From an uncultured Gemmatimonadaceae bacterium (GTDB lineage Bacteria > Gemmatimonadota > Gemmatimonadetes > Gemmatimonadales > Gemmatimonadaceae), in the NCBI GenBank assembly GCA_963790305.1, contig CAWBOC010000010.1, forward strand, positions 384,001 through 448,000: a stretch of 64,000 bases of DNA, read 5' to 3'. Below, piece after piece: positions 422 through 63,100 of this stretch (the first letter of the stretch is position 1; every line of letters begins with the position of its first letter). Made by a program: the position numbers and the translations under genes. The notes beneath the pieces are model-generated. The model was not told the DNA's origin. It was given only the letters and a program-made list of their open reading frames with translations, and ran no database searches.

Positions 422-940
422 ATGACCACAGCCACCGCGAACGCCACCAAGAGTCAAAAGCAGCAATTTCTGGAAGGATTCGAGCGTGAGACGGCGACGA
501 CGCTGAAGGTCCTCAAGGCGTATCCCGCGGATCAAAGCGAGCTTCGCCCACAGGAGCGAATGAAGACGGCTCGTGAGCTTGCCGCAATGTTCACCATGGA
601 GATGGCGGCCATCGACGCCGTGGTACGCGGGACGTTTACCTTCCCACCGAAGCCACCACCGATGCCTCAGAACTGGCAGGAGGTCGTCGATGCCTTCGAG
701 AAGACTCGCGCGCGCACCCTCGAGGGACTGCACGACGTGACCGACGAATCGCTGGCGTCGGGCACGGTCACCTTTCCCACCGCTCCCAAAAAGGTGAGCG
801 AGTGGCAGAAGCTGCCGTTCGCGTGGTTCCTCTTGTTCGACCAGATCCATCACCGCGGGCAGCTCTCGGTGTATCTGCGCCTGGCGGGCGGCAAGCTTCC
901 GTCGATCTACGGGCCCACCGCCGACGAGCCCTGGACCTAA
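422..940 (+). CDS. DinB family protein
   Basis: GAGGT RBS before ATG 422; C-terminal HHRGQLSVYLRLAGGKLPSIYGPTAD signature. Confidence 0.9.
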   Translation: MTTATANATKSQKQQFLEGFERETATTLKVLKAYPADQSELRPQERMKTARELAAMFTMEMAAIDAVVRGTFTFPPKPPPMPQNWQEVVDAFEKTRARTLEGLHDVTDESLASGTVTFPTAPKKVSEWQKLPFAWFLLFDQIHHRGQLSVYLRLAGGKLPSIYGPTADEPWT

Positions 941-969
941 CGAACGCTCACTTTCAGCCTCAACGCCTC

Positions 970-1608
970 ATGATTCGCTTCTCGCTTCTCGCAGCCGCGG
1001 CGTTCGCGCTTCCGCTCGCCGCTCAGCAACCCAATGCCAAGCCTGCGTCGCGTCCGACCCTCCCCGAGGGATGGCAGGTACGGCTCGACCGCGCGAATGC
1101 CAACGCCACGGCCATCAAGTTCGCGACGATGCCCCCCGGATGGCACGTCACCGCCGGGCCCTCGGCGATCTACTGGAATACGCAGAACATGGGAAGCGGC
1201 CAGTACGAGGTGCGCTCGTCGATCATCCTGATGAGGCCCTCCGCCCACCCGGAAGCGTACGGACTTTTCTTCGGCGGCAAGAATCTCGATACCGATGAAC
1301 AGCGCTATAACTATTTTCTCGTCAGGCAGGATGGGAAATACCTGATCAAGCATCGCGACGGCACCGAGACGCATACGATCGTCGACTGGACGGCCCATCC
1401 CGCGGTGAAAGTGCCCGAGGGGCAGGGCGAGGCCAGCAACGATCTCACCGTGCGCGTCGGGAGCGACTCGGTCGCGTTCCTCGTCAACGGGCAGCAGGTG
1501 AACGCCTTCCCGCGCAGCGCGATCGCGGATATTGACGGGCAGGCGGGGCTGCGCATCAATCACAATCTGGATGTGCACGTGGCGAAGCTGGAGGTCGGAA
1601 AGCCTTAG
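970..1608 (+). CDS. Secreted hypothetical protein, probable beta-sandwich (DUF1080/ConA-like)
   Basis: Signal peptide MIRFSLLAAAAFALPLAAQ; beta-strand-rich body (HPEAYGLFFGG, VAFLVNG). Confidence 0.7.
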   Translation: MIRFSLLAAAAFALPLAAQQPNAKPASRPTLPEGWQVRLDRANANATAIKFATMPPGWHVTAGPSAIYWNTQNMGSGQYEVRSSIILMRPSAHPEAYGLFFGGKNLDTDEQRYNYFLVRQDGKYLIKHRDGTETHTIVDWTAHPAVKVPEGQGEASNDLTVRVGSDSVAFLVNGQQVNAFPRSAIADIDGQAGLRINHNLDVHVAKLEVGKP

Positions 1609-1626
1609 TCTCGCGCGCAAGGTACG

Positions 1627-1732: not shown

Positions 1733-1736
1733 GTGT

Positions 1737-2648: not shown

Positions 2649-3989
2649 TCAGGGAAGGGCGGCGGTCGTCGGCGTCCCTGGCTGCTTGTACACCACGCCA
2701 TCCTTCATCACGAAGATCACACGCTCGGCGGCCGTGATGTCCCGCGTGATGTCGCCCGGCACCGCCACGATGTCGGCGAGCTTGTTGGCGGCGAGCGTGC
2801 CGAGGCGGTCGTCCCAGCCTAACAGCTTCGCGGCGCTGCTCGTCCCCGCGACGATGGCTTCCATCGGCGTGAGCCCGCCCCACTCGACCATGAGGCGCAT
2901 CTCGCGGGCGTTCGTCCCATGCTGAATGACACCGGCGTCAGTACCGAGCGCGAGCTTCACGTTGTTGCTCTTCGCGATCTTGATGGCGTTGCGCATGGCC
3001 GCTGCCGCCGCGAGCGCCTTCTCGGCGCGCAGCCCCTTGAGCGTTCCGTCTCTCGCCGCGCGCTCGACTGCCTCGCCCGCCATCAACGTGGGGACGAGAT
3101 AGGTTCCCTGCTGGGCCATCAACCGCGCTCCTTCCACGTCGAGAAAGGAGCCATGCTCGATCGAGGCGACGCCGGCGCGCGTCGCGATCTTGATGCCCTC
3201 GGTCCCATGAGCGTGCGCGGCGACCTTGCGATCGTGCTTCGCCGCCTCGTCCACCATCGCGCGCATCTCCTCCAGACCGTACTGCACGTTCCCGACGGCA
3301 TCGCCCTCCGACAAAACACCGCCCGTGGCGCAGGTCTTGATGAGGTCGGCGCCGTACTTGATCTGGTAGCGAACGGCGGCGCGCACCTGCTCGGGACCGT
3401 CGGCGATGCCGGTGGTGGGATCGCCATCCATGAGGCCGGGCTTGAAGGCGTTGTTGTCGCAATGTCCGCCGGTGATGCCTAGCGAGTAGGAGGCTCCCTG
3501 CATCCGGGGGCCGCGAACCTTCCCCTCACCGATCGCCTTCTTGAGGGCGAGGTCGGCCCAATGCTCGGCGCCGACGTTGCGGATCGTCGTGAAGCCGGCC
3601 ATGAGCGTGCGCTCGGCGTGCACGACGGAGACCACAGCCCCGTAGGTGTTGAAGTCCTTCACGCTCTCAAGGTCATTTCCCGGGTCACCGAGGACGCGAC
3701 CGCTGATGTGCGTGTGCGCATCGATGAAGCCGGGAAGGAGAGTCGCGTCGCCGAGATCGATCGTTTGCGCGCCGGCGGGTACGGTCACCGAGCCGCTGCG
3801 GCCGACCGCGGTGATGCGGTTTCCGCTTACCACGACCACGCCATTGGCGATCGGGGCGCCTCCCGACCCGTCGATGACGCGTGCGGCTCGCAGCACGATC
3901 GTTGTCGGGGCCTGGGCCGGCTGTTGGGCCTGGGTGACGCCAGCGAAGGCGAGTGCGGTGAGCGCGGTCGAGAGTCGGGTGTGGCTCAT
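2649..3989 (-). CDS. Secreted metal-dependent amidohydrolase (Xaa-Pro dipeptidase-like)
   Basis: Signal peptide; PGFIDAHTH, KxCATGG, AHAHG, IEHG and GTDAG motifs. Confidence 0.92.
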   Translation of the reverse strand: MSHTRLSTALTALAFAGVTQAQQPAQAPTTIVLRAARVIDGSGGAPIANGVVVVSGNRITAVGRSGSVTVPAGAQTIDLGDATLLPGFIDAHTHISGRVLGDPGNDLESVKDFNTYGAVVSVVHAERTLMAGFTTIRNVGAEHWADLALKKAIGEGKVRGPRMQGASYSLGITGGHCDNNAFKPGLMDGDPTTGIADGPEQVRAAVRYQIKYGADLIKTCATGGVLSEGDAVGNVQYGLEEMRAMVDEAAKHDRKVAAHAHGTEGIKIATRAGVASIEHGSFLDVEGARLMAQQGTYLVPTLMAGEAVERAARDGTLKGLRAEKALAAAAAMRNAIKIAKSNNVKLALGTDAGVIQHGTNAREMRLMVEWGGLTPMEAIVAGTSSAAKLLGWDDRLGTLAANKLADIVAVPGDITRDITAAERVIFVMKDGVVYKQPGTPTTAALP

Positions 3990-4068: not shown

Positions 4069-5400
4069 TCAGCTCCGCCTGCCTAACGTTGCCGTCAGCT
4101 CGACGCGCGTGCCCTCGCGCAACACCACGATCTTTACGGTGTCCCCGGGCTTCCGGGCCTGGAGCGCATCGGTGTACTCGTACAGGTCCTTCACCGTCTT
4201 GCCGTCGAACTCGACGATGATGTCGCCTGCCTTGAGCCCCGCCTTGTCGGCAGGACTGTCGGTGCGGACGCCGGTCAGGCGCACGCCCGGAGTCTCCGGC
4301 GCGCTCATGTCGGGGATCGATCCCAGGTAGACCTCGCGGCCGCGCCCCGTGCCCGCCACCGGCGCCGGACGGCTCACGCGTACCAGCGTCAGGCGCTCAC
4401 CACGGTCCGCAATCGTGCGAACGACCCGTTCGGCCAACCCCACTACGCGACCCACGCCGGCCGCGCTCACCTTGTCTGCATCATCGGTGGCACGATGGTA
4501 GTCCTCGTGCAGGTCGGTGAAGAAGTGCAGCACCGGAATCCCTCGCGCGTAGAACGACGAGTGGTCCGACGGGCCATAGCCATCGCCGACGCCGCGCACG
4601 TCGAGGCCCGTGCCTGTCGCCGCGCTGTCCACCAGCGCGCGCATCTCCGTCGCCGTCTCCACGCCGTACACGATCACGCGGTCGTTCCGCAGGCGACCGA
4701 CCATGTCGAAGTTGAGCATCGCCACGACGCGATCGATCGGCACCGGCGACCGATCGACGAACCGCTGCGAGCCGAGGAGCCCGAGCTCCTCGCCGCTGAA
4801 GGTGACGAAGATGACGGAGCGACGCGGGGTCTGACGCGCCAGCAGGCGCGCCAGCTCCATCACCGCGGCGGTACCAGACGCGTTGTCATCCGCTCCGTTG
4901 CGGACGGCCTCGGCCGAATCGGGATCCAGAGCGCTTGCGCCGGAGCGGCCGAGGTGGTCGAAGTGAGCGCCGATGACGACGTATTCGTTCGCGAGGGCGG
5001 GGTCGGTCCCACGCAACAGCGCGACGACATTCTGCGACGGCAGCTCGGATGGCAGGCCTGCGTGGGCTGCTGCTGCCGAGCGCGCGACGAATGGCTGGAA
5101 GTACTTCCGCTCGCATCGCGCATGCAGCGTGGCATCTGAGCTCTGGCATCCGCTGGCGACCGTCGTGAGACGAAGCGATTCGAAGCGACGGGCGATGTAC
5201 GCGGCGGCGCTGTCGTTGCCGGCGGTCCCGGTGCCACGCCCTTCGAATGCCGCGCTCGCGAGGTGCTCGACATCGCGCCGAATCGCCATCGTGTCGGGGG
5301 CGTCCCGGGCGTCGCGGCTCGTCGTCGTCGATGGCGGCGATGGTTGGCAGGCGCTGAGCGCGAGGAATGAGAGGGCGAGCGAAGAAACTGGCCGAAACAT
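4069..5400 (-). CDS. M28 family peptidase lipoprotein with C-terminal PDZ domain
   Basis: Lipobox LSAC; GAHFDH, GADDNASG, EELGLLGS, NFDMVG, YH; YLGSIPD...SPADKAGLKAGD PDZ. Confidence 0.92.
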   Translation of the reverse strand: MFRPVSSLALSFLALSACQPSPPSTTTSRDARDAPDTMAIRRDVEHLASAAFEGRGTGTAGNDSAAAYIARRFESLRLTTVASGCQSSDATLHARCERKYFQPFVARSAAAAHAGLPSELPSQNVVALLRGTDPALANEYVVIGAHFDHLGRSGASALDPDSAEAVRNGADDNASGTAAVMELARLLARQTPRRSVIFVTFSGEELGLLGSQRFVDRSPVPIDRVVAMLNFDMVGRLRNDRVIVYGVETATEMRALVDSAATGTGLDVRGVGDGYGPSDHSSFYARGIPVLHFFTDLHEDYHRATDDADKVSAAGVGRVVGLAERVVRTIADRGERLTLVRVSRPAPVAGTGRGREVYLGSIPDMSAPETPGVRLTGVRTDSPADKAGLKAGDIIVEFDGKTVKDLYEYTDALQARKPGDTVKIVVLREGTRVELTATLGRRS

Positions 5401-6035: not shown

Positions 6036-6769
6036 TCGCGCGACTTCGCAGCGTCAACCCGCTCACCGCACTCGCGGCCGCCGTACTGCTCGTCGTCGTG
6101 ACCTACGTCATCCCGGCGCCAGTTGGACCGCTGGCCGCCCTGGCGCTGGCATTCACGTTGGCGGCGATGACCAGCGTCGCCCGTCGTGTCGCGATTCTCG
6201 CCGCCGCCGTCGCGATACCGACCTGGATCTTCCTCGCCGTGATGAATGCGATCGTGGCTCCGGAGGGGGATATCGTCCGCGTCGCCGGCGTGAACATCGC
6301 CGCGCATGCACTGCTCCCCGCGGCCTGGATTGCCCTCCGCCTTGGCGCCGCGGTCGCGGCGCTCGCCTGGGTGGTAATGACGACGCCGCCACAGCGTCTC
6401 GTTCGCGCCCTCGCCCAACGCGGGCTGCCGGCGTGGTCGCAGTACTTGCTCGCGGCGTCCCTCGCCGCCGTTCCCGAGGCTCGGCGACGCGCGCGCGAGG
6501 TGCTCGATGCGCAGCGGTGTCGCGGACTCGCCGTTGGCGGCGGTCCGCTCGCGCGCCTTCGCGCGACGCTCCCACTCGCGGGGCCGCTGATGGTGTCGCT
6601 CGTCACCGAGGCCGAGCGGCGCGCTCTCGCGCTCGATGCGCGAGCATTCGACGCGCGCGGTGCGAGGACCTCACTCACGGAAGTCGCGGACCCTAACGGG
6701 GAACGCACGCTGCGGACGGTGATGTGGGGCCTGGCGATCGCCCTCATTGTGCTGGGGCTGATTCGATGA
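6032..6769 (+). CDS. ecfT: ECF transporter transmembrane T component
   Basis: GTGA overlap; AQRCRG and ALDARAF conserved Arg motifs. The ORF-track ORF is over-extended upstream. Confidence 0.85.
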   Translation: MIARLRSVNPLTALAAAVLLVVVTYVIPAPVGPLAALALAFTLAAMTSVARRVAILAAAVAIPTWIFLAVMNAIVAPEGDIVRVAGVNIAAHALLPAAWIALRLGAAVAALAWVVMTTPPQRLVRALAQRGLPAWSQYLLAASLAAVPEARRRAREVLDAQRCRGLAVGGGPLARLRATLPLAGPLMVSLVTEAERRALALDARAFDARGARTSLTEVADPNGERTLRTVMWGLAIALIVLGLIR

Positions 6770-8210: not shown

Positions 8211-9857
8211 ATGGATCATTCGACGACCTTCGCCCGGCATTTCGCGCGACTCGTGCATCTTCTGCTGCACGAGCCGAAGAACATTGCGAACCAGAAGGCG
8301 GCCCTCCGCCTCCTCGTCGCGATGGCGAAAGAGGGCGAGGTCACGCTGGCGGTTCGCGATTGGCAGGTGGTGGCGAACGGGTCGCTCCTTCCTCCGCAAC
8401 TCGAAGGCGCAGAAGACCTTGGCGCCCAGCTCATCGGCCATGCCGTCACCGAGCTGGTCGCCGAGCAGAACGCATCGGCCGCTGACCTTCTCGGGATCGC
8501 GCGCACCCTCGCGACCGAGCCCATTCCCGGCGACGGCGGTCGCAACGTCGCCGACAAGCTCGCTGCCCTGGGCGCGAAGACGGTGCGGGTGACGCTCTCC
8601 GGCAACGCCCCGCTGCCGCGCGTCGCGACCATCTCGATGCCGACCCACGGCTCCGACGTTCCGGGTGTGGTGCAGAAGCCGGCCACGAACGGAGGCAGTC
8701 GCAACACGGGCGATGTCGCCATCGTGGCTCAGGCGCCGGCGGCGCCCATGCCGGCGGCCCCAACGTCCGCGGCGCCGACGCATCGTCCCTCGGTCGAGAT
8801 GGGCGTCATGCGCGGGATCACCGACAGCTACCTCTCACAGTTCGCTGCGCCCGACACGTCCCGCGGCTCCATCTCGACCGGGTTCACACAACTCGACGCG
8901 ACGACGAGCGTGAACGACACCACGAAGCTGCTCGATGGCGTGGCCGGTGCTGCCGAGGCAGCATTTCGCGAGGGTGATTCGGAGACACTCGCGGTCGCGC
9001 TCGCGGGCATCGTCAAGCGCGAGACCGCCGCCGCCGACCCCAACCTGCGACGGGCGTACGGGATGGCGGTGCGCCGTCTCGCCAAGAAGCCGATGCTGGC
9101 CGTGGTCGCGCCGCTTCTCGCCTCGCAACGCGAGATGTACGAGGAGCTTCTCGCGATCTTCGCGCGTACCGCGGACAATGGCGCTGAAGCGCTGATCGAG
9201 CAGCTCAACGCGGCGCAATCGCTCGCCGAGCGTCGTGTGTACTTCGATTCGCTTCGCAAGCTGAACGCTGGCGTTCAGGTGCTCATTCACATGCTCGGCG
9301 ACTCGCGGTGGTACGTCGTGCGCAACGCGGCCGATCTGCTGGGTGAGATGTCGGTCAATGACGCTGAGCCGAAGCTCTCGGAGCTACTCCAGCACGAGGA
9401 CGATCGCGTCCGAAAGGCGGCGGTTTCGGCGCTCTCGAAGATGACGGGTGCGGGCGCGGTGAAGGGCCTCGCCGCATCGCTCGAGGATGGAGCGCCGGGT
9501 GTGCGAGTGCGAGCCGCGGCCGCGCTCGGTGCCTCGAAGACGCCCGCGGCGGCGAACGCGCTGATCAAGCACCTCGAGCGTGAAGAGATCGCCGAGGTAC
9601 AGCACGCGTGCCTCTCGTCGTTAGGAAAGATCGCGACCGGGGATGCGATCCGTTTTCTGACGAAGGCCGCCCAGCCCGCGACCGGGCTCTTCAAGAAGAA
9701 GGCGACCGCCTTCCGTGTCGCCGCGGTGCGGGCGTTAGGCGAGGCGCGCACCCCCGCCGCGATGGGCGCCCTCCAGAATCTCCTGCACGACAAGGAGAAG
9801 GACGTGCGAGAGGCGGTGTTCTGGGCGGTCCGGGCTGGGAAGGGAGAGACCGAATAG
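8211..9857 (+). CDS. HEAT repeat protein
   Basis: C-terminal HEAT units (DSRWYVVRNAADLLG, DDRVRKAAVSAL, VRVRAAAALG). Confidence 0.85.
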   Translation: MDHSTTFARHFARLVHLLLHEPKNIANQKAALRLLVAMAKEGEVTLAVRDWQVVANGSLLPPQLEGAEDLGAQLIGHAVTELVAEQNASAADLLGIARTLATEPIPGDGGRNVADKLAALGAKTVRVTLSGNAPLPRVATISMPTHGSDVPGVVQKPATNGGSRNTGDVAIVAQAPAAPMPAAPTSAAPTHRPSVEMGVMRGITDSYLSQFAAPDTSRGSISTGFTQLDATTSVNDTTKLLDGVAGAAEAAFREGDSETLAVALAGIVKRETAAADPNLRRAYGMAVRRLAKKPMLAVVAPLLASQREMYEELLAIFARTADNGAEALIEQLNAAQSLAERRVYFDSLRKLNAGVQVLIHMLGDSRWYVVRNAADLLGEMSVNDAEPKLSELLQHEDDRVRKAAVSALSKMTGAGAVKGLAASLEDGAPGVRVRAAAALGASKTPAAANALIKHLEREEIAEVQHACLSSLGKIATGDAIRFLTKAAQPATGLFKKKATAFRVAAVRALGEARTPAAMGALQNLLHDKEKDVREAVFWAVRAGKGETE

Positions 9858-42628: not shown

Positions 42629-43592
42629 GTGAAGTCGACAAGCCTCAGGTCCTCTTACAAGGAGGGTCGCACGCGGCTGCTCGGTCTCTTCGCTCTGCTC
42701 CTGTTGTGCCCACTCTCCTCGTCCTGCGCGCCGACCCGTGTGGCCGGCCAGACGGATGCGGCCCCGCGTGCGGCCAACGCCCAGCCGACCTATCTCCTCA
42801 TCCGCAGTGATGATGCGGGGATGAGTCACAGTGTGAACCTGGGCCTCCAGCGGCTGATCGAGAGCGGCTTGCCCGTCTCGATCTCGGTGATGTTTCCCAC
42901 GCCGTGGTACCAGGAGACCGTCGAGCTCCTGAAGCGGCACCCCACGGTATCGGCGGGCATTCACCTGACGCTCAACTCGGAGTGGAAAAACTATCGGTGG
43001 GGACCGGTGTTGGGCCGTACGGCGGTTCCCAGCCTGGTGGACGCGCGAGGGATACTTTTTCCCGTCCGCTGACACCCTCTACAAGAACCGCCCCGACCTG
43101 CAGGAGGTCGAGCGGGAGCTGCGCGCGCAGATCGAGCGCGCCCTCCGGTCCGGCCTCAGGATCGACTACGTCGATTACCACATGGGCACGGTCATGCGCT
43201 ACCCCGAGTTCCGCGAGATCACCGAGCGGCTCGCCCGGGAGTTCTCGTTAGGGATGTCGGGCTATTTCGGCGAGACCAGCCACGACCCGCAGTACGCGGC
43301 GCCTCCGCGGGCCAAGCTCGACAGCCTGCTGGTCATGGTGAACCGCCTCGAGCCCGGCCTCAACCTCGTGGTCACCCACGTCGGGATCGATGATGCGGAG
43401 CTGGGTGCGCTACTGGACATGAACACATCGAATCCGCTCCCCGACATGAGCAAGAATCGTCAGGGAGAGCTCGACGCCCTTACGTCACCGCGGTTCAGCG
43501 CCGCCGTCAAGGCGCGCAACATCCGCCTCGTGACGTATCGCGATTTGATCCAAATGCACGGCCTGCAGGTGATGCGACGCCCCGGAGGATGA
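42629..43592 (+). CDS. ChbG/YdjC family carbohydrate deacetylase; frameshift near 43050
   Basis: LIRSDDAG, GIHLTLNSEW, ELRAQIE, YVDYHMG, VTHVG. Confidence 0.85.
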
Positions 43593-46919: not shown

Positions 46920-48716
46920 ATGATAAAACCGCTATCGCGGCACCCGCTGCTCTTCGGGACGGCGTTTGTGCTTCTCGCGGGAGGTGCAGTGCACGGCTGC
47001 TCCGATTTCCTCGAGAACGCGGCGGCCCCGCAGGGAACGCTGGATGACAAGACGATCGCGAGTCGCGTCGGCGTCGAAGGTACGCTCATCGGGGCGTACC
47101 GCACGCTCGACTGCACCACCACCACCAATAGCGACTGGGGGTGCGCTGCCAGCAACTGGGTCTTTGCGTCGGTCGCGGCCGACGATTCGTACAAGGGATC
47201 CGACGGCAGCGACCAGCCCCCGATCAACGACATCGAGGGATACCACTGGGGCACGCCTAACGCCGAGTCTTATCTGAATACCAAGTGGTCCCACGTCTAT
47301 GAAGGCGTTGTTCGAAGCAACGCGACCCTGCGCCTGCTGCAGCAGGTCATGGCGATATCGACCGAAATCCCCGACGCACTCGCCTCCGAGATCGAGGGCG
47401 AGGCGCTGTTCCTCAGGGCGCACTACCACTTCGAGGCATGGCGGATGTGGGGACGTATTCCGTACTACTTCGAGGATGATGAGGATACTCGCAAGCCGAA
47501 CCTGTCGAGCGCCGAGGTCGTAACGGCCCTGCTGGCGGACCTCGACGCAGCCATTGCAAAGCTGCCTTTGACTCCGCGGAATGGGCAAAAGGGCCGAGCG
47601 ACACGGTGGGCCGCGAAGGCCTACAAGGGACGCGTGCAGGTGTATGCCGGGCAATACGCTGCGGCCGTGACGACGTTGCAGGACGTCAGGCTCAACGGAC
47701 CGTATGCGCTCCAGCCAAGCTTTGACCAGGTGTGGAGCGGTTTTCAGGAGTATTCGAACGGACCGGAGACCATATTCGCCTATCAGGCCTCCACGAACGA
47801 CGGAGAACCCAATGGCGACAATGGCAACTGGGGCGAACGACTGAATTTCCCATACTCCGGAAGCCATTTCGGCTGCTGCGGATTCAATCAGCCAAGTCAG
47901 AACCTGGTGAACTTCTACCGGGTCGACGCCGCGGGCCTTCCCCTGGCCCTATCGGCCCCAGGGAGCTGGAACGCATCGAATGCGAACATGACGGCGGCGA
48001 CGGTTCCGGTGGTAGATCCGCGGCTTGATTGGACCGTTGGTCGCGACGGCGTGCCGTACAAGGATTGGGGAGCTCACAGCTCGAGCGGGGGCTGGGTCCG
48101 TGACGTGGCCAACGGTGGGCCGTACAGCCCCAAGAAGAACGCGCATGAAAAGGCCAGTGGCGCGGAACAGGTGTCTGGTGGCTGGGCGCCGACCCAGCAG
48201 AATTCCATCAACATTCATCTCTTCCGTTATGCGGACATGCTCTTGCTCCTGGCCGAGGCAATGATAGAGACCAACGACCTGGCAGGCGCGACGGCGATCG
48301 TCAATCAGATCAGGGCACGTGCAGCAGTCCGGGCCCAGGGCCCGGGAACCGATCGCGCGACGATCGCGGTGCCGATCAATAGCCCGTCGATCACCTGGGC
48401 GGTTTACAACGTCGGCCAGTATCCGGTGTTCGCGAGTCAGGCTTTTGCGCGGGACGCGGTTCGGGCGGAACGCCGGCTCGAGCTCGCGCTGGAAGGACAA
48501 CGGCTGTTCGACCTGCGGCGCTGGGGAATTGCTGACGCGACTCTCAATGGCTACATCAACGGCGTCGGCGGAGGAGCCGAGGAGACCCGGAGACTCTACA
48601 AGGCGAGTGCGGAGACGTTCACGGCCAAGCACGCCCTGTACCCGATTCCGCAGATTCAGATCTCGCTGAGCCGGGTAGGCGGGGAGGATCGCCTAACGCA
48701 GAATCCGGGGTGGTGA
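46920..48716 (+). CDS. susD: SusD/RagB family lipoprotein
   Basis: Lipobox HGC; GEALFLRA, RYADMLLLLAEA, ERRLELALEG.RLFDLRRWG, QNPGW. Confidence 0.93.
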   Translation: MIKPLSRHPLLFGTAFVLLAGGAVHGCSDFLENAAAPQGTLDDKTIASRVGVEGTLIGAYRTLDCTTTTNSDWGCAASNWVFASVAADDSYKGSDGSDQPPINDIEGYHWGTPNAESYLNTKWSHVYEGVVRSNATLRLLQQVMAISTEIPDALASEIEGEALFLRAHYHFEAWRMWGRIPYYFEDDEDTRKPNLSSAEVVTALLADLDAAIAKLPLTPRNGQKGRATRWAAKAYKGRVQVYAGQYAAAVTTLQDVRLNGPYALQPSFDQVWSGFQEYSNGPETIFAYQASTNDGEPNGDNGNWGERLNFPYSGSHFGCCGFNQPSQNLVNFYRVDAAGLPLALSAPGSWNASNANMTAATVPVVDPRLDWTVGRDGVPYKDWGAHSSSGGWVRDVANGGPYSPKKNAHEKASGAEQVSGGWAPTQQNSINIHLFRYADMLLLLAEAMIETNDLAGATAIVNQIRARAAVRAQGPGTDRATIAVPINSPSITWAVYNVGQYPVFASQAFARDAVRAERRLELALEGQRLFDLRRWGIADATLNGYINGVGGGAEETRRLYKASAETFTAKHALYPIPQIQISLSRVGGEDRLTQNPGW

Positions 48717-48817: not shown

Positions 48818-51800
48818 TGATCGCGAACGTCTGAAGCGAATCGCCCGTATTCGCGACGAGCAGCGCCTTGCCGGCTGGCGTGTCGATCAGCGCCAGCCCC
48901 GCGACGTTCAACGGAGCAAGGAAGCCACTTTCGCTCGCCGGCACTGGGGCGAAGTGACCTCGGCCGTCGCCTCTGAGCCACAGCCCGTTCCCCGCATCCG
49001 CTCGCGGCGTATTGGGCTCGGTGTCATAGAGATTCCCAGCCAGAATGACATCGCGATGCCCGTCACCATCGACATCGTGGACGACGATCGCGCGGACGGG
49101 TGAGATTTGCGCCAGAGTGGGCAACCGTGACACGCTGAAAGTCCCACCGCCATCGTTACGCAGGAACACGCTCGCGAACGTATCGGCCTCGTAATGCAGG
49201 GCCTGCCGGAGCTGAGCGGCGCTGAATAGCTGCGAGATCGTCGCTCGCGCGAACGATCCATACGTTGGGAATTTCAGCGCCGTCTGATAGATCGCCCGAC
49301 CGACGGGGGCCAAACCCCCCAGCGAGTACTCAATGCCATCGATCTTCTTCGTCAGAACGACGTCCGTCGTTTGGTTGCCGGTGAACGTGTTCGCGTACAC
49401 GCCGAACGCACTGTCCTTCAATGCAGTGTACGTATGGTTCAGCCCGAGGTTCCCGGCGATGAGGTCGGACCGACCGTCGCTGTCGAAGTCCGCCGCCGCG
49501 AGGCTATACCACCATCCTCGCAGCGATGGTCGCCGCGTGGCTGACGTGACGTTGCGCAACGTGCTCCCATCGTTTCGATGGAATTGAATCGGCATCCACT
49601 CACCGACGGTCACGAGATCCAGGCGCTTGTCCCCGTCGAAGTCTCCCCAGACCGCGTCAGTGATCATTCCTCCGGGCTCCACGAGCTGGGGTGCAACCTG
49701 CTCAGTGACGTCGCTGAATCGTCCGCCGTCATTGCGAAGCAGGTAACTCCGGGTGGGGTAGGGATACTGCCGCGGCGTTAGGCGGCCACCGACGAAGAGA
49801 TCAGGGCGGCCGTCGCCGTTGAAGTCTCCGGCGCGGACCGTGGACGTGCTCGTGAGCATGACCGGCAGCGCGCCGGTGTCTCTGACGAATCTGCCGCCCC
49901 CGTGGTTGATGTACAGCCGGTCCTGCAACAATGGGGAGCTCGGCGCGAGTTGATAGCCGCCGCTCGCCACGTACAAGTCCAGCCTGCCATCGGCGTTTGC
50001 ATCGAAGAACGTCGCTCCCCAATCCTCGTGCTGCTTGTCCGCATCCCAGGGTTGCGCTCGCGCCGACTCGACGAAGCTTCCGTCCTTGCGCTGCATGAAC
50101 AACGTGCCAGCGAGGCCACCTCCGCCGCCGACGAAGACGTCCTCGAGCGTGTCGCCGTCGACATCCCCGACGGCGAGCGCCGGACCCTGTCGGGAGATCA
50201 TGTACGGCAGGAGCGGCTGTACACTGTAATCGACTGATGTGCCGAGTTGATGCGTGTAGGGAACGCCCTCGATCGGCTCAAACCATCTCCTCCTGTCTTT
50301 TACGTCAGTCGTGTCGTTGGTGAGCCTCGCGTCTATCTGCCTGACGGTGACCAACCGATCGACGTCCAGCCCGGTGAGCACCTGGGCTCGGCCGTCCGGC
50401 CATCGCACTTCGAGACTGTCCACGCGGCGGGCGCGACCGAGGCCAAAGTGCGCGCGCGGATCCACCGTGGACATGAAGCCTCGGTACGGGTTGTAGTACA
50501 GATGCTGCTTTTGCCCTGCGGCCGTCAGCGTCAGCGTCGCCCCGGTCGCGCGTTGCGGTGATTCTCCCTTCAGCTCGACGTTCAGGTAGTGATGCGCGTC
50601 GTCGTTGGGCGCGACGTTGTGATAAATGAACGCCGGTGCGTCGATGTTGCTCACGACGAGGTCGAGCCTGCCGTCGTTGTCGAGATCGGCATAGGCGGCG
50701 CCGTACGAGTAGCTCGGGCGGTCCATCCCCCAGGCGCGTGTCTTGTCGATGAACGTCAGGTCCCCCGCGTTCCGAAAGATGAAGTTGGGTTCCTCGTACC
50801 CGTGAAGGCCCTGGAGGAGCGCGCGAGCTGCTCTGACGGTCCCCGCGTCATTGCGGCGGCCTAACGCGAAAAGGGCGTTCAGGTAATCGAGATCGATGAC
50901 CGCCTTCGGGTAGCCGTTGCCGATGAAGATGTCCTTGTGGCCATCGTTGTCGAAATCGGCAAAAAGGGCGCTCCAGCTCCAATCCGTATGGGCGACTCCC
51001 GCCAGGCGGGAGATTTCGCTGAAGCTGACATTCCCTTCCGTCGTGACGCCATTGCTGAGCTGCAGGGTGTTGAGGCTATAGTCGTAGCGAAACCCTCTTC
51101 GACGCCACTCCTGGAAACTCCCGTATGTCGCGAACCCGCTCATTCGTTTCCGGCGATCCAGATCGCGGGGCATCATGTCGACCTGAAGAATGTCCGGATG
51201 GCCATCGTTGTTGAAATCCGCAATGTCGATCCCCATGCCCGCGGCGCTCGCATGCTTGAGCCACCGATCGGCCTTGTCAGTGAACGTTCCGTCACCGTTG
51301 TTGACGTACACGACGTCGTTCGGTGGACCGTCATTCGACACGTAGATGTCGGGCCATCCATCGCGGTTCAGATCGGCCGAGACCGCCCCCAGCCCGTAAC
51401 CAGCCTTGCGCAGAATTCCTGCGGCATCCGAGACATTGGTGAACCGTCCCCCTTTCTCACCACGGCACGGGTTGCGGTAGAGCTGGTTGTAGCTGTCGGG
51501 TGTCTGGCCACGGAGCGCGGCCGGCTGGTTGGTGACGCCGCGAAAAAAATCCTGGGGGGAATTGGTGAGCAAAAAGACGTCGAGGCATCCGTCACGATCG
51601 TAATCGAGGAAAACGGCGTGCGTCGTAAATCCGACGTCCGCAAGGCCGTATTGCGATGCTGCCTCGGTGAAGGTCCGATTTCCATTGTTGATGAAAAGCA
51701 GGTTCGCGCGATGTTCCGGCGGCGTCCATGCCGGGCCTGAAACGGACACGTAGATATCGAGGTAGCCGTCGTCGTTGATGTCGACCATACTCGCGCCGGT

Positions 51801-56522: not shown

Positions 56523-57378
56523 TGGTTCTTCGAAGATCGATCCATTTAGCGACGGGACCGACCAATGCCAACGCCAGGAACGCCGGCGCCGCATTGAACG
56601 CAACTGGCAGTGGCGCTCCCTGATCGGACGCGAAGCGAATCAACATCTCCATCACCGCGATCAGGATGGCCACCGTGATCTGCCGCCGCCGCCCGCGCAC
56701 GATGGTGCGCGGATCGGTGATCATGAAGAAGATGAACAGCTGGTACATCGGGCCGGTAATCGGGGCGATCTCGGGCAGTACCGGCAAGCCGAGCACGCTC
56801 GCCCGCAGGCTGTTCAGGATGAGGAAGCTCGCGACGTACGTCAGCGTGATATGCAGCACGCCGACCCGCGCGGCGATGATCAGCCCGAACACCCAGATCA
56901 CCAGATTGGTGATCACGTCGTTGCCGAACTGGTGGCTGAGCACCGAGACGCGGTCGGGCGCCAGGAGCAGCAAAGCGGTGACCGCGAAGTTCGTGGGGTT
57001 CCACAGGTGGTTGTCGCGATAGCGCAGGACGTACTTCGACGAAATCGCGAGGAAGCCGCCGAGGGCGAAGGGCCAGAGCGCACCTCCCTGTGGCTTGACG
57101 AGCAGCGTTAGGCTGATCCCACTGATATAGGCGCTGAGGAGGTTGGCGACCCGGCCGCGGTCGAACACCGACAGCAGCGCCTCGGTCGCCACGCACACGG
57201 ACAGCGCGAGGAGGAGCCGGTCGTAGCTGCCGAGCATGTGGTAGCGGAGCTGCGCCGCCACCAGCACCAGCGTGATGAGAAACGCGATGAGGTAGCGCGG
57301 ATCGAGATGGCGTGCGCGATCCCATGAGGTGACGACGGCGTTCGGTGGCGCGGCGGTCGCCTGCGTCGCGTCGTTCAT
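56470..57378 (-). CDS. UnbU/RnfD-NqrB-like integral membrane protein
   Basis: AISSKYVLR...HLWNPTNF, LFIFFMITDPRT; multiple TM helices; directly downstream of the UnbV-like gene. Confidence 0.8.
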   Translation of the reverse strand: MNDATQATAAPPNAVVTSWDRARHLDPRYLIAFLITLVLVAAQLRYHMLGSYDRLLLALSVCVATEALLSVFDRGRVANLLSAYISGISLTLLVKPQGGALWPFALGGFLAISSKYVLRYRDNHLWNPTNFAVTALLLLAPDRVSVLSHQFGNDVITNLVIWVFGLIIAARVGVLHITLTYVASFLILNSLRASVLGLPVLPEIAPITGPMYQLFIFFMITDPRTIVRGRRRQITVAILIAVMEMLIRFASDQGAPLPVAFNAAPAFLALALVGPVAKWIDLRRTRGAGVALEKGWNSAGVH

Positions 57379-57382: not shown

Positions 57383-59146
57383 TCAGCGCTCTGGTTCCGT
57401 GACCGTCACGATGCGATCGATCGGTGGGCGTGTCAGGATCTGACGCCCTCCCGAAGGCCACTCGATGACGACGCGATCCACCCACTCGCGAGCGCCAAGC
57501 CCGAAGTGCAGGCGGCGATCGTTCTGGCTCGCGAACCCGGATCCACCGTCGACAACCCGCCGCTGCGCCAGATCTCCAGACTCGAGCAGCACCTCTGCGC
57601 CAATCGCGCTGCGATTGCTTCGTGTGCCGATGAGGTGGAAGCCGATCCAGTGGTTGGCGCTGTCGGGATAGCCGCGATAGAGAATGGCGGGCTGGTTCTG
57701 GTTCGCGACGATCACGTCGACCGTGCCACGATTCGAGAAATCGGCGAGCGCCACCGCGCGACCGTCGTAGAGGTCCGTCACGCCGACGTGTTTCGCGACG
57801 TCTATCCAGCCGGCGACGCCGCGATTGAGGTACACACGCGACGGCTCATAGCCGGACAGGCTTGCGTTGCCGAAGGGAGGCCAGGTGGCTGCATCCTCGA
57901 AGAAGCGTGCGTTGGCCCCGGCGATCTTCGACATCGAATACCAATAGTTCTGCTCACGATTCGCCGAGATGAAGCCGTTGGCGACGAAGAGCTCATTGGT
58001 GCCGTCGTTGTTGAGGTCGCCGAACTGTGCACCCCATGCCCAGCCGGCGTCCGCGATGTCACCCTCGGCGATATTGCGGAAGCGGCCCGCCTCGCGCATT
58101 TGATTGAGGCGCAGGTTGTTGTTTTGAAAGAGGTAGCCCCGCTCGGAGATGTTGGTGACGAACGCGTCGAGGCGGCCGCGGTTGAACGCATCGCCCAGCG
58201 TCACCGACATCCCGCTCTTGGATTCGCTCTCGAGGCCGGCGGTGGTGAGGATGAAGCGTCGCCCGTTGTCGTTCAGGTACAGCTCCTCCGGGCCATAGTC
58301 GTTGGCCAGGTAGATGTCGGGCCAGCCGTCGGCGTTGAAGTCGGCTGATGCCGCCGCCAGCGTCCACCGCGTGCTCCCGACTCCCGCCTTGTCGGTGACG
58401 TTTTCGAAGCGCGCGCCGCCCAGGTTGTGAAAGAGGAGGTTCTTCCCGCCGTTCGTGGCGAACTCGAAGCTGTCGTGCATGATGCGCGTCGTCGTGAGGT
58501 GCCACAGATCGACGTCGCGGAAATAGGCCGTGACATAGAGATCGAGCAGGCCGTCGCGATCGTAGTCGAGCCAGATCGCGCCATTGCTGTTCACCCACCG
58601 ACGCAGCCCGGCCTGCGTCGTGATGTCGTCGAAGCGACGGCCATCGATGTTCCGGTAGAGCGCGAGATACCCGTAACGGTAGACGAGCACGTCTTCGCGA
58701 CCGTCGTTGTCGATGTCGCCCCAGACCGCGCCCATCGACACGCCGTCTCCTGGGCGGTTGACGTCCGCCAGCCCCGCAGCCGTGGCGACATCCTCGAACG
58801 TGCCATCGCCGCGGTTGCGGTAGAGCGCGTTAGGCTCGCCGAAACGGCTGTTGGTGAAATACAGGTCGACGTTGCCGTCGCCATCGAAGTCGGTGACGGA
58901 CACCGAGGCGCCGAGTGCGGCGACGTGGGGCTCGATCCCAGCGATCTTCGGGTCGAACGTCGGGCGGCGGTGAACGAAGTGAATGCCGGCGTTCGCGGTC
59001 TCATCCTTCAGCACGAACCCCGGGCGCGCGGCATCTGCGAGCCCGGGGCGCGGCCCGTGGTTCAGCCGCATCGCCAGCAGAAGCGCGGCGACGAAGGGGA
59101 CGGCCATGATGGCACGCCTAACGCTGGGACGAGGCCGCTGTGGCAT
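57383..59146 (-). CDS. CRTAC1/ASPIC-UnbV family FG-GAP protein
   Basis: FG-GAP repeats; GWAWG..FGDLNNDG, SNRSAIGA, GSGFASQN..RLHFGLG, WPSG. Confidence 0.9.
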   Translation of the reverse strand: MPQRPRPSVRRAIMAVPFVAALLLAMRLNHGPRPGLADAARPGFVLKDETANAGIHFVHRRPTFDPKIAGIEPHVAALGASVSVTDFDGDGNVDLYFTNSRFGEPNALYRNRGDGTFEDVATAAGLADVNRPGDGVSMGAVWGDIDNDGREDVLVYRYGYLALYRNIDGRRFDDITTQAGLRRWVNSNGAIWLDYDRDGLLDLYVTAYFRDVDLWHLTTTRIMHDSFEFATNGGKNLLFHNLGGARFENVTDKAGVGSTRWTLAAASADFNADGWPDIYLANDYGPEELYLNDNGRRFILTTAGLESESKSGMSVTLGDAFNRGRLDAFVTNISERGYLFQNNNLRLNQMREAGRFRNIAEGDIADAGWAWGAQFGDLNNDGTNELFVANGFISANREQNYWYSMSKIAGANARFFEDAATWPPFGNASLSGYEPSRVYLNRGVAGWIDVAKHVGVTDLYDGRAVALADFSNRGTVDVIVANQNQPAILYRGYPDSANHWIGFHLIGTRSNRSAIGAEVLLESGDLAQRRVVDGGSGFASQNDRRLHFGLGAREWVDRVVIEWPSGGRQILTRPPIDRIVTVTEPER

Positions 59147-59221: not shown

Positions 59222-60073
59222 GTGAGGTTCACTCATGTCGCCATGCATCGCATGCTCGCTGCCAGCCTTTCGATCGCCTTCGCGGTCGCCGCCTGCACGA
59301 CAGCGCCCGGTGGCGCGCCACCGACGGAGTGGACCTTGGCGTGGAGCGATGAGTTCAGCGGGCCCACGGGTGCGGCCGTCGATCCTGCGAAGTGGGTTGC
59401 CGACACCGGAGGGCACGGGTGGGGGAACCAGGAGCGGCAGTACTACACGCCCGGCCCCGCGAACGCCTCGCTCGACGGAAGCGGACATCTCGTCATCACG
59501 GCACGTGTCTCCACGGATTCCTCGCGGCACTGCTGGTACGGCGTCTGTGGCTACACCTCAGCGCGGCTCAAGACCAAAGGCCTGTTCGAGGCGACATACG
59601 GCCGCTTCGAGGCGCGGATTCGAGTCCCGCGAGGGCAGGGAATCTGGCCGGCGTTCTGGATGCTCGGCGCCGACATCGATCAGGTGGGCTGGCCGCAATG
59701 CGGCGAGATCGACGTGATGGAAAACATCGGCCGGGAGCCGAGCATCGTACACGGGACGGTGCACGGCCCCGGATACTCGGGCGCCAGTGGGATCAGCGGT
59801 GCCTACACGCTGACGAGCGGAGCGTTCGCCGACGACTTCCACACGTTCGCCGTCGAGTGGTCCGCTAGCGAGATACGCTGGTTGATCGACGGCGCCGAGT
59901 ACCGGCGCCTCACATCAGCCGGGCTTCCCTCCGGAGCGCCGTGGGTCTTCAACCACCCGTTCTTCATGCTGCTGAACGTCGCCGTCGGCGGAGCATGGCC
60001 GGGCGATCCGGATGCGTCGACGCCACTGCCGCAGCAAATGGTGATCGACTACGTGAGAGTTTATAGGCGCTAG
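59222..60073 (+). CDS. GH16 glycoside hydrolase (laminarinase-like) lipoprotein; start may be a downstream Met
   Basis: WSDEF, GWGNQERQYY, YTSARL, GIWPAFWM, EIDVME, LNVAVGG. Confidence 0.93.
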   Translation: MRFTHVAMHRMLAASLSIAFAVAACTTAPGGAPPTEWTLAWSDEFSGPTGAAVDPAKWVADTGGHGWGNQERQYYTPGPANASLDGSGHLVITARVSTDSSRHCWYGVCGYTSARLKTKGLFEATYGRFEARIRVPRGQGIWPAFWMLGADIDQVGWPQCGEIDVMENIGREPSIVHGTVHGPGYSGASGISGAYTLTSGAFADDFHTFAVEWSASEIRWLIDGAEYRRLTSAGLPSGAPWVFNHPFFMLLNVAVGGAWPGDPDASTPLPQQMVIDYVRVYRR

Positions 60074-60170
60074 AGGCGCTAGAGGCGCTAAGGCGCACTG
60101 AAGCGCGCTAACGGCGCTGAAGGGGTTCACCCCTGGCGGCTTCAGCGCCGTCTAGCGCCTTTAGCGCCTC
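60065..60170. repeat. (GGCGCTAGA)n ... (TAGCGCC)n element between convergent genes
   Basis: aggcgctagaggcgctagaggcgctaaggcgc ... ttcagcgccgtctagcgcctttagcgcct. Confidence 0.88.
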
Positions 60171-63100
60171 ACGACGCGAGTATTGTACTCCCTCAAATAG
60201 CGCTGGCGCTCCGCGTCAGTCGGATACGCATCACCCGGCGCGTACGGGTATGCCCGCGCACCATGGAACGGGAGCGGGTGCACCGTGGTGCCGAACGCCG
60301 TGTTCAGATCGGAGTCCTTGATCCAGCCGTCGGTGTACAGCAGAAAGTCGCGCTTCCAGCCCGGCGGCAGCGAGGCAGCTGAGCTCGCATCGAACTGAAT
60401 GGTCACTTCGTCGCCCGGCCCCATGATCGCGTACATGTCATCGCCGGCGCGCAGGAGCGGCAGCACGTCCCCAAAGCGGGTGAACGCACCTTCGATTGGG
60501 CGCCAGGGCGACTCCTTCGACAGGTCGTCGTAGTCGAACCAGTACGGCCCATAGCGGCCGCCCTTGCGATACATGCGCGAGAACCCGCGGACGTGCAGAT
60601 CGGCGGACGTCGGCGCGAGCGTCGTGATCTTCGCCGGACCATTCGTGAGGTCGCGAGCGACGAACGCCTGGTCCCAGTAGATCTGCATGTTCGTGCGGAT
60701 GCGTACGTGGCGATCCGAGGTCGGAAATTTCCCCGCCAGATCGATGACGATCGTCTTGTCCTTGCCGGACGGAAATCCAATGTCGGCCACGCTGCGCCAC
60801 GTGCCGTTCGCGTCCCGCACCTCGAGCGATGGAGGCGCGAGCGCGATCGTCCATTGCTGTGACAGCGCGACGTTAATGCTGGCATCGGTCGGATAGATCC
60901 ATCCGCGCAGGAAGAGATACGTGTCGGGACGGCCGGCGTCCGGCCCCAGGTCGAGGATGACATGGTGCGGCTCGACCGCTCCCTGGTATTGCATCGGCGT
61001 GAGGTTCGACACGAACACATCGTCGGCTTCGCGCAGCGCCGCCAGCACATCGTTTCCCCCCTCGTCCACCGCCGAACGCGGCGCCGTGCGGCGCGCGATC
61101 TGGAAGAGGCGGAGCGAGACCGGTCCGGGAGGGACGAAGCGCTCGTCCACGAACACGTCCACCGAATCCGGACGGTCGACGGCGACGAGCTTCACCTCAT
61201 CGGCGTAGGCGGTTTCCCACAGCTCCTCGGTGAGCTGAATGACGTAGCGTCCGTCACGCGGCTGGAGGGCATCGCCGGAGATTCGCACGTACTCCTGCGA
61301 GGCGCCGGCGGGAGCGAACGCGCTCGTGCTCCCCATGAGGCCGAGGGGCATTCCCAACGCGCTGCGCCACATGGCATCGGTGACGAAGCGGAAGCGTTTG
61401 CCATCCCACGTGTACACGAAGGCGCACGATCCCTTGAGTAGCTCTTGCTCGACCACATCCTGGTCCGTTCCGGGGAGGTAGACCGTCTGCGGGACGCCGT
61501 TAGGCCATTCCACGCGGAGCACGTCGGCCTTGAGGTGAGGGCCCAGGCCAAAATGCGTCACGCGACCGGTCGCAATGCGTGTCTGATAGATCTCTCCAGC
61601 TCGCAGCTCGAGTCTCGCGCCAGTGCCGAACGTGTTGTTCTTACCGCTCCCAGTACGGAGACCCTTGAGCTCGACGTTCACGGCGAGGTTGCTGTTGCCG
61701 AGGTCGTTGCGAAGGAGTCGGGGGGCCCCGCTTCCGTCGATCAGGACGAGGTCTTCGTCACCATCGTCGTCGACCTCGGACACCGCCAGCGCCAGAACCC
61801 CCGCGGCGCGCACGTGCTCGGGTACGATGCTCGATCTATCGAGCAGCCTGCCGGTGCCGTCGTTGCGAAGGAAGTGCACGGTGGACGAGCTCGCCGCGGT
61901 TCTCGCGGCACCCGCGACGATGAGATCGAGCCAGCCGTCGTTGTCGTGATCGATGAACGTCGCCGCTGATCCCGATGTTGAACGGAGCGGCTGCAGTGCA
62001 CCACTCGAGCGGCGATCACGGGTGAACGTGCCGTCTCCCTCGTTGAGCCAGAGCGCAGGCTCCGTCCCATTCACCGTCGCTACGAAGAGGTCGAGGAAGC
62101 CGTCGTTGTTGTAGTCTCCCACCGCTGTTGCACCAGAGCCCCCATTGCTCCCCAATCCGCTCGCCGCCGTCACGTCGCTGAAGCGCTGGGCGCCCCCGTT
62201 ACGCAGCAGTGCATCGCTGCCGCGCTCACTGGTGATGAACAGGTCGACTCGGCCATCGCCGTCGAAGTCGGCGTACACGGCGTCGCGCGCACCACCGCCG
62301 CCAAGACCGAAGCTGGCTGTCGCCTCGGTGAAGGTTCCGTCGAGATTATTGCGGTAGACGGTGCGCGTCGTGTCGCTCGCGAGAAAAAGGTCGAGATCGC
62401 CATCGTGATCGAGATCGACGAACAGCGATCTATGCGATCCTCGAACGTCAGCGACTCGCGCTTGCGTCGTCACATCCGCGAACGTGCCATCGCCGCGGTT
62501 GCGGAGCAGGCGTCCGCCGCCGTCACCGCCAATGACGAAGAGATCCAGCCAACCATCGTTGTCGTAGTCCGCGAACGCGGCGTGCTCGCCGCCCTGCGGC
62601 AATAGGATGTTCGATCCTTCGGTGACGTCGCGAACGAATCCGCCCTGCACGCGATAGAGGCGGCCCGAGAGAAAGAGCTCGTCCGTTCCATCCCCATCGA
62701 CATCGCCGGCGGCGAGCGCCGTGTTGCGGGGATTTGGAGCGGAGCGTACGAAGCCGGCTTCGTCACTGGCGTCGGTGAACTTCGCCAGGCCGACCGCCGC
62801 TTGCTCGCGCACTCCATGAACGGTGACAAAGGACTTGGGGGCGAAGGAGAGGATGACCCGGCCGGGAATAGGACCCTCGATCAACCTCACGCCGTCCAGC
62901 GACGCCTGATAGGGCGCCGTCCCCTCCATTAACCGGAAGAAGCGATCGAGCGTTGCCCGCGATTCCGTAGTGTCCCTCGCGCGGAGCAGTTGAATCGATC
63001 GCTCGAGAGCCGATCGCGCCTGCGGTGGAAGCGCGGGAGGCACCCGTCGGACTTCCTCGAGATGCCTGACAGCGCTATCAGCTTCGCCGGTCCTGGCAAA

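Follow-up and report, generated by a model that had tools for sequence, protein, structure and literature searches.

A short asymmetric DNA word, GCCTAACG (on the other strand CGTTAGGC), recurs at many times its chance frequency throughout the genome of a Gemmatimonadaceae bacterium, in genes and spacers and equally on both strands. We followed it outward from a 64-kb stretch of that genome (hereafter the window; G000:C10:384001-448000). The source, G000, is a metagenome-assembled genome (MAG) of 4.31 Mb in 13 contigs, with 66% G+C and 94% completeness, and its closest named loci likewise belong to Gemmatimonadaceae MAGs. The pattern is that of a DNA-level tag kept by drive or by selection at each site and repeatedly gained or lost within one family. 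Tentatively, we favour the explanation that GCCTAACG serves part of the Gemmatimonadaceae as a self word spread over the whole genome, kept by a transfer-linked drive of the kind associated with the DNA uptake sequences (DUS) of Neisseriaceae and the uptake signal sequences (USS) of Pasteurellaceae.

Abundance and frame independence of the octamer

The window holds 20 copies of GCCTAACG, ten per strand, every one at the coordinates named in the original prediction, against 1.11 ± 1.06 (maximum 5) in dinucleotide-preserving shuffles. Across the 4.31-Mb genome there are 855 copies (436 on the plus and 419 on the minus strand), about 20 times the 40 or 44 expected under order-2 or order-3 Markov models (z ~125), and the word ranks first in over-representation among all octamers of G000. 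Markov models of higher order swallow this excess because the sub-words of GCCTAACG are equally inflated; masking the core in the background lowers what the order-3 model expects to 11–13 copies and makes the excess 67- to 78-fold. The CCTAAC core alone occurs 33 times in the window, against 7.9 expected. All ten further core positions that had been listed do hold CCTAAC, but the list was incomplete and had missed the cores at 2818, 14842 and 22623.

By our own rough gene calls (3,421 genes, covering 66–89% of each contig), 670 of the 855 copies fall inside genes, 51 overlap a gene boundary and 134 sit in intergenic DNA, the last roughly in proportion to the uncalled share of the genome; the claim that copies lie mostly inside genes holds for the window (16 of 20) and genome-wide. 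Genic copies use all four stop-free frames: xCG-TTA-GGC (327 copies), xxG-CCT-AAC-Gxx (146), xGC-CTA-ACG (139) and xxC-GTT-AGG-Cxx (58). The first and third of these bear out the claim that copies force rare Leu codons, and codon usage is distorted accordingly, since 327 of the genome's 986 TTA codons, a third, sit inside the word. Per frame, GCCTAACG fills 2.7–22% of the peptide opportunities open to it, 8- to 51-fold above the expectation from codon usage. Given the encoded peptides, a codon-aware model expects 33.4 copies in called genes, against 668 observed; synonymous-codon shuffles inside each gene (n = 20) yield 37.7 ± 6.0 (maximum 51), against 670 observed (~18-fold), and five control octamers of similar composition reach only 0.1–1.4-fold. 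Loss of the enrichment on codon shuffling and similar enrichment of control octamers, the two outcomes named beforehand as refuting the signal, are both excluded, because shuffles and controls fall far short of GCCTAACG. Use of four frames and spacers, the codon-aware models and the synonymous shuffles together support the original prediction of a lineage-specific signal at the level of DNA.

The same evidence refutes the idea that the word is a by-product of protein motifs, codon usage or a dispersed mobile repeat. This idea can point to the single frame xCG-TTA-GGC, which takes 327 of the 670 genic copies, but it has to contend with the use of the other three frames and of intergenic DNA, with the shortfall in the synonymous shuffles, and with flanks that are not conserved; moreover, orthologous sites differ by substitutions and not by insertions. 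No flanking consensus emerged from all copies or from the intergenic copies alone (at most 0.08 bit per flanking position in the latter), and an extended consensus around GCCTAACG was rejected on these analyses. A dispersed repeat of the repetitive extragenic palindromic (REP) or miniature inverted-repeat transposable element (MITE) type was likewise rejected, as there is no longer conserved unit and the copies are mostly genic rather than intergenic.

Density is even along genes and over codon-adaptation classes (0.15–0.22 per kb). Tolerance for other letters is confined to a few places in the word: both outer positions prefer G > A > C > T, and position 3 accepts A, giving a second enriched variant, GCATAACG, which has 241 copies (17 expected) when the integron array discussed below is left aside. 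GCCTGACG is mildly in excess (826 against 305), and at orthologous sites it is the alternative met most often. On the explanation we favour, GCCTAACG is a free-standing, asymmetric protein-recognition word of 8 bp with graded tolerance at positions 1, 3 and 8. Other over-represented octamers of G000 include AATGCGGA/TCCGCATT (628 copies, ~5-fold), a GCCTCTAGCGC-type word and TGACTCCTGA-type words.

Spacing, conservation and taxonomic distribution

Copies of GCCTAACG avoid one another at short range. Gaps below 200 bp number 4 against 33.6 expected, those below 500 bp 34 against 81.5, and those below 1 kb 108 against 155, and the depletion affects direct and inverted pairs alike. Gaps above 20 kb are as frequent as by chance (13 against 14.3 expected); with long gaps at chance frequency and normal codon usage within them, we discarded the notion of motif-free islands. 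When the window was aligned with eight close relatives (~77–87% nucleotide identity), 19 of 31 site-by-genome comparisons were identical, comparisons that are not independent because the relatives share ancestry, against 15–29% for all other octamers in those alignments; between congeners the word is conserved about three times better than ordinary octamers. It also turns over, as the same alignments contain 10 copies at 6 positions that are present only in relatives.

The word is distributed patchily. We tallied 151 family genomes by hand from a table that includes the unpublished G015, G053, G054, G152, G207 and G236, on which alone no claim rests. Of these 151, 52 carry at least 200 copies, 8 carry 85–194 and 91 carry at most 73; the highest count is 6,360, in G016. 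At least one word-rich genome occurs in 31 of 77 genera. All nine genomes of the source genus carry 382–1,006 copies, while another genus has mixed states, with 3,896 copies in G068 and 4,141 in G168 but 66 in G126. Density differs 60-fold between sister species, and at least 7–9 changes of state fall on a tree built from a universal 1,021-aa protein in 41 genomes. Outside the family, none of 92 genomes of the same phylum exceeds 91 copies; G030, a genome of another family, has 345. Hyper-abundance of GCCTAACG is nearly confined to Gemmatimonadaceae. In four rich genomes whose DNA was examined, the word is the same and strand-mixed, and the preference for adjoining letters differs by lineage; apparent one-strand runs in G125, G093 and G067 proved to be an artefact of listing, the DNA itself being strand-mixed. 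Among the matches listed in a full-text literature search, no paper deals with this word in the phylum.

Each 50-kb bin has balanced strand counts, as has the DNA on either side of contig C5's GC-skew switch, so that the lack of Chi- or KOPS-type polarity first claimed for the window holds genome-wide. Chi (GCTGGTGG), the FtsK-orienting polar sequences (KOPS) and the SpoIIIE recognition sequences (SRS) are, like GCCTAACG, asymmetric, over-represented octamers dispersed in genes; unlike them, GCCTAACG has no replichore or terminus-directed polarity. A role as a Chi-like hotspot of recombination that a helicase-nuclease recognises is close to refuted. E. coli Chi is likewise an asymmetric octamer found in genes, about once per 5 kb, and in a first sample AddAB/RecBCD (scored as a strong PDDEXK_1 match in a large open reading frame (ORF), or as RecC) was present in 4 of 28 word-rich against 13 of 24 word-poor genomes (raw Fisher p = 0.003). 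However, the trend ran the other way in a second sample (3 of 11 rich against 2 of 24 poor; pooled, 7 of 39 against 15 of 48), and a sign test on independent pairs gave a median p of 0.125; after these two results, absence of AddAB/RecBCD was dropped as a correlate of the word. Polarity is wholly lacking, and a 60-fold difference in density between sister species also speaks against such a role. RecC was found in 3 of 32 genomes but not in G000, and neither a PDDEXK_1 nuclease domain nor an AddAB-type nuclease was found in that 94%-complete assembly. Helicase-nucleases of the AddAB/RecBCD type are uncommon in the family (22 of 87 genomes; none in G000). As for KOPS and SRS, word-rich and word-poor genomes alike have one FtsK (31 of 32 genomes), and a second FtsK/TraB-type translocase was rejected as a reader of the octamer. 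With neither polarity nor a reader, Chi and KOPS are excluded. In G000 two ORFs share the FtsK motor domain between them (G000:C13:171208-171832).

Explanations for a DNA-level tag

A transfer-linked drive would build on what we observed: the word is enriched, symmetric between strands, independent of frame, spaced apart at short range, conserved yet turning over and patchy in its taxonomy, and uptake genes are present. To these we add three inferred parts, namely biased uptake, recombination as the spreading step and a separate specificity factor. Point substitutions would write GCCTAACG into coding and spacer DNA alike, frequently at the price of the rare codons TTA, CTA, CCT and AGG, and a force acting on the DNA itself would then retain it. 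A DNA-binding component of the uptake route (type IV pilus, ComEC, DprA) would favour word-bearing fragments, and homologous recombination of the favoured fragments would carry word-bearing alleles through the population. One word per ~1-kb fragment would saturate the advantage, so that close neighbours would gain nothing; where a lineage lost the specificity factor, the word would decay to background. G000 does encode an uptake route, comprising ComEC, a PilQ-like secretin, four PilT paralogues and DprA, with pilin and minor-pilin operons adjoining pilMNOPQ. Two PilQ-like genes with near-identical scores (G000:C3:186339-187694 and C11:41993-43348) reflect either duplication or assembly redundancy.

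Among known systems, GCCTAACG by analogy appears to work most like DUS and USS, and like the highly iterated palindrome HIP1 as now interpreted. DUS and USS are also short asymmetric words in hundreds to thousands of copies, equal on the two strands, present in all frames and in spacers, with fewer close pairs than chance would give; they too are conserved yet turning over, restricted to one family and accompanied by uptake genes. DUS have 10–12 letters and USS 9 plus AT-rich flanks, whereas GCCTAACG has eight letters and no flanking context. Further differences are that the word is missing from ~60% of the genomes in the family and that no ComP-like receptor was found for it by a profile that was silent in controls too; GCCTAACG is a candidate member of this class. 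HIP1 (GCGATCGC, cyanobacteria) is again a hyper-abundant octamer in genes, but it is palindromic and a known methylase target, while GCCTAACG is not its own reverse complement and no methyltransferase that we found tracks it. According to the available text of one study, HIP1 is conserved, quasi-evenly spaced, has exceptions within its phylum and is proposed as an uptake or self mark (PMC13756078). The same text reports that HIP1 correlates with pilus and competence genes (PMC13756078); here, in contrast, pilus and ComEC genes are present with or without GCCTAACG.

The original prediction had offered an uptake-like sequence, a HIP1-like motif driven by methylation or repair, and a nucleoid-protein site. 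The first fits best, in view of strand symmetry, use of all frames, repulsion, conservation with turnover and the uptake genes; on the other hand, no reader was found, and uptake genes are equally present in word-poor relatives. Several results weigh against a transfer-linked drive. In our search for a reader, which covered about a dozen gene families, no gene examined followed the word: ComEC occurs in 139 of 151 family genomes, PilT in 32 of 32 and a PilQ-like secretin in 48 of 48 (none above the equivalog cut-off), all independently of the word. Minor-pilin sets, if they differ at all, are commoner in the word-poor sisters G126 and G051; the four sets of G000 were rejected as readers, having no rich-only pattern in two rich/poor sister pairs plus G010. 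ComP_DUS (PF16732) had no match in G000, though the profile matched no control genome either, and no paper among the literature matches listed describes natural competence in this phylum. Unlike the dialects of Neisseriaceae, no alternative hyper-abundant word appeared in the word-poor G070 and G010 (200 kb each), where GCCTAACG itself is at background. Other one-letter variants at inner positions, of which GCCTAAAG is an example, are also at background (0.5–2.9-fold), whereas singly mismatched USS are themselves in excess in Haemophilus. Finally, such a drive does not predict that the word should be an integron core site, as described below.

Some of the same features would suit a binding site of an abundant chromosomal protein (nucleoid-associated, chromosome-organising or repair) kept by per-site selection, an explanation we consider unlikely. 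Density that is even along chromosome and genes, short-range repulsion, conservation above background and graded tolerance at three positions, reminiscent of a protein recognition matrix, are all in keeping with it. Yet per-site selection would be very weak when spread over 855 to 6,360 sites, sister species manage without the word or a substitute, and no candidate was found among the handful of families examined. Moreover, for the site-specific proteins known to act on chromosomes, sites number in the tens to hundreds and are for the most part palindromes or polar.

Methylation gained no support. The DNA methyltransferases of G000 were sought by a motif screen, whose list may be incomplete, and two were found: a 1,021-aa Eco57I/MmeI-like N6-adenine enzyme and a D12-class enzyme. 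The gene for the first lies at L108:5023-8088 (G000:C7:233,022-236,087). This enzyme is present in 48 of 48 family genomes, rich and poor, mostly near full-length and with 44–87% identity, and behaves as a core gene rather than a sporadic defence gene. As a reader it was rejected: 41 of 41 sequences keep an intact NPPW motif, the rich and poor groups are told apart by no alignment column (best difference 0.57), and the enzyme's tree interleaves them. The D12 enzyme was rejected as well: word-poor G126 has it, and in word-rich G059 it was not found. A methylation-linked motif, marked by a methyltransferase and raised in frequency by methyl-dependent uptake or biased short-patch repair, would at least suit CCTAAC, which we take to be shaped like a target of a type IIG or bacteriophage exclusion (BREX)-type enzyme (six asymmetric letters with A at position 5), and G000 does hold an Eco57I/MmeI-like N6-adenine and a D12-class methyltransferase. 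HIP1 offers a precedent, since the available text reports that two methylases recognise it and that it raises transformation, an effect that depends on methylation (PMC13756078). But neither G000 methyltransferase tracks the word, and short-patch repair should deplete one transition variant, of which we saw no sign. The effects of such repair are ~1.5-fold, against 20- to 70-fold here, and we regard this explanation as decidedly improbable.

The word also coincides with the canonical core site of integrons, an identity absent from the original prediction. Integron consensus boxes are given in the available part of one source as RYYYAAC (R'') and GTTRRRY (R') (PMC12901181), and on that consensus the heptamer GCCTAAC fits the R'' box and GTTAGGC the R' box. 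Word-poor relatives carry the octamer in clusters that keep to one strand, with copies 0.4–2.3 kb apart. On G021:C95, GTTRRRY follows 18 of the 23 copies; the 18 segments span 94–107 nt, at -21 to -35 kcal/mol, and 17 of them fold with R'' paired to R'. Judged by sequence and predicted folding, these clusters are attC sites with GCCTAAC(G) as R'' box and GTTAGGC as R' box. Similar arrays adjoin integrase matches in G019:C26 and G021:C80, and cassette arrays of the form GCCTAAC...GTTAGGC are present on G021:C95 and G019:C3/C26 and probably in G217, G220 and G254. Integron integrases (TIGR02249 above cut-off) were found in 37 of 52 genomes of the family and order, against 0 of 14 controls. G000 itself has a chromosomal integron, with an integrase at C9:694,912-695,922 (TIGR02249, 448.9 bits) and, downstream on one strand, at least 16 attC-like repeats of ~150 nt spaced 0.5–3.3 kb apart, several of which use GCATAAC/GTTATGC boxes. 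The integron stretch (L204:912-17521 plus L205; C9:694,912-715,3xx) has a lowered G+C of 0.58–0.66 and few long ORFs.

These observations suggest that the word could be a docking site of a tyrosine recombinase of the integron-integrase or Xer kind, or of a DNA-binding protein derived from one. Dispersed copies would then be lone double-stranded R boxes, which might titrate or guide the protein or be landing or exchange points for cassette traffic. The match of the heptamer to both consensus boxes, the octamer that opens predicted attC sites on G021:C95, the unusual frequency of integrases in these genomes, the integrase and array of G000, and the parallel between its GCATAAC/GTTATGC boxes and the enriched variant GCATAACG all point this way. 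Nevertheless, integrases are distributed without regard to the word: one scores above cut-off in 16 of the 24 word-rich genomes and in 18 of the 24 word-poor ones. G067 and G125, with ~3,200 copies each, have no integrase match at E <= 1e-30, whereas word-poor G126 has three. No L box, attC-like hairpin or flank conservation was found at dispersed copies. Only 1 convergent and 4 divergent inverted pairs in the genome lie less than 300 bp apart, and lone attC sites or attC-like hairpins at dispersed copies were rejected, none having been found. The commonest attC box of G000, GCAGAAC, is not enriched when dispersed (261 against 251 expected), and neither are the purine swaps that GTTRRRY permits (GTCTAACG 0.8-fold, GCCCAACG 1.0-fold). 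Insertion sites within genes should be counter-selected rather than favoured. The match was also spotted post hoc, and by our estimate a random heptamer fits the consensus at ~0.2–0.4%. We therefore judge this explanation doubtful and keep the integron link as a lead only, because integrases do not track the word, dispersed copies are bare and GCAGAAC is not enriched. The comparison with attC and attI is two-sided in the same way: the heptamer fits both R boxes and the same octamer opens attC hairpins in relatives, but the dispersed copies are single boxes in double-stranded coding DNA that arise by substitution.

The two ideas could be combined. GCCTAACG might be a tag for self or for transfer, patterned on the core site of integrons and read by an integron-integrase-like, possibly tyrosine-recombinase-derived specificity; DNA carrying R boxes would be preferentially imported or recombined, and drive would have spread the box through chromosomes. 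This is a long shot.

Sites in the window and wider meaning

The sites in the window are given in the table, together with their reading frames and their state in aligned congeners.

Copies of the octamer, of its core and of its second enriched variant in the 64-kb window. Sense, antisense and intergenic assignments follow our rough gene calls; L020, L021 and L067 are aligned relatives.
Feature	Position	Strand	Context and state in relatives
GCCTAACG	4081..4088	+	gene on - strand reads xCG-TTA-GGC; identical in 3/3 aligned congeners
GCCTAACG	9733..9740	-	gene on + strand reads xCG-TTA-GGC; identical in 4/5 congeners
GCCTAACG	15411..15418	+	gene on - strand reads xCG-TTA-GGC; identical in 3/4 congeners
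GCCTAACG	23863..23870	+	gene on - strand reads xCG-TTA-GGC
GCCTAACG	29237..29244	-	sense, xxG-CCT-AAC-Gxx
GCCTAACG	33006..33013	-	gene on + strand reads xxC-GTT-AGG-Cxx
GCCTAACG	33878..33885	-	gene on + strand reads xCG-TTA-GGC; one letter different in L021
GCCTAACG	35595..35602	+	intergenic; identical in L021
GCCTAACG	36400..36407	-	intergenic; identical in L021, CGTCAGGC in L067
GCCTAACG	39118..39125	+	sense, xxG-CCT-AAC-Gxx
GCCTAACG	40555..40562	-	gene on + strand reads xCG-TTA-GGC; L020 and L067 have CTG-GGx
GCCTAACG	42617..42624	+	intergenic
GCCTAACG	47255..47262	+	sense in SusD-like gene, xxG-CCT-AAC-Gxx
GCCTAACG	48691..48698	+	sense in SusD-like gene, xGC-CTA-ACG
GCCTAACG	49776..49783	-	sense in FG-GAP/ASPIC gene, xGC-CTA-ACG
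GCCTAACG	50859..50866	+	antisense in same FG-GAP/ASPIC gene, xCG-TTA-GGC; identical in L020 and L021
GCCTAACG	57106..57113	-	sense, xGC-CTA-ACG
GCCTAACG	58828..58835	-	sense, xxG-CCT-AAC-Gxx
GCCTAACG	59116..59123	+	intergenic
GCCTAACG	61498..61505	-	sense, xxG-CCT-AAC-Gxx
CCTAAC core without full octamer	936..941	+	
CCTAAC core without full octamer	2818..2823	+	newly listed
CCTAAC core without full octamer	6692..6697	+	
CCTAAC core without full octamer	9620..9625	-	
CCTAAC core without full octamer	14842..14847	+	newly listed
CCTAAC core without full octamer	21115..21120	+	
CCTAAC core without full octamer	22623..22628	-	newly listed
CCTAAC core without full octamer	25775..25780	+	
CCTAAC core without full octamer	26372..26377	+	
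CCTAAC core without full octamer	26633..26638	+	
CCTAAC core without full octamer	31493..31498	-	
CCTAAC core without full octamer	43247..43252	-	
CCTAAC core without full octamer	44243..44248	+	
GCATAACG, second enriched variant	48225..48232	-	

The window also contains three further features. A near-perfect hairpin repeat of ~110 bp (REP/MITE-like) lies at 1625-1732 and 13401-13530, both times in intergenic DNA; the congeners G004 and G008 carry dozens of copies on either strand, and the repeat probably accounts for the enriched octamer CACAGAGG/CCTCTGTG. RNase R appears as two overlapping ORFs (11351-12118 and 12093-13175, model positions 216-418 and 438-655), split by a frameshift or an assembly error. 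Upstream of the SusD gene, pieces of a SusC/RagA-type receptor at 42063-42524, 43182-43592 and 43622-45127, in a stretch of lowered G+C (0.62), belong to a gene (42063-45127) that is broken or misassembled.

To our knowledge, sequence-specific self tags that serve DNA exchange have been established for just two families of bacteria. HIP1 is now argued to be a third case in the available text of PMC13756078. If a transfer-linked drive does keep GCCTAACG, the word would be a further case, in an abundant and little-studied soil phylum. The sharp contrasts between sister species (~4,000 copies in G068 and G168 against 66 in G126) should let comparative genomics track down the reader and allow one to date how such a tag arises and decays, and within Gemmatimonadaceae GCCTAACG is usable as a marker for binning and for the detection of foreign DNA. 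Because the word matches the core site of integrons, a connection between tags spread over whole genomes and the traffic in gene cassettes can be put to the test. Should the tag indeed be modelled on that site, natural gene transfer would be coupled to the cassette pool in a group of which ~70% of the tested genomes encode an integrase.

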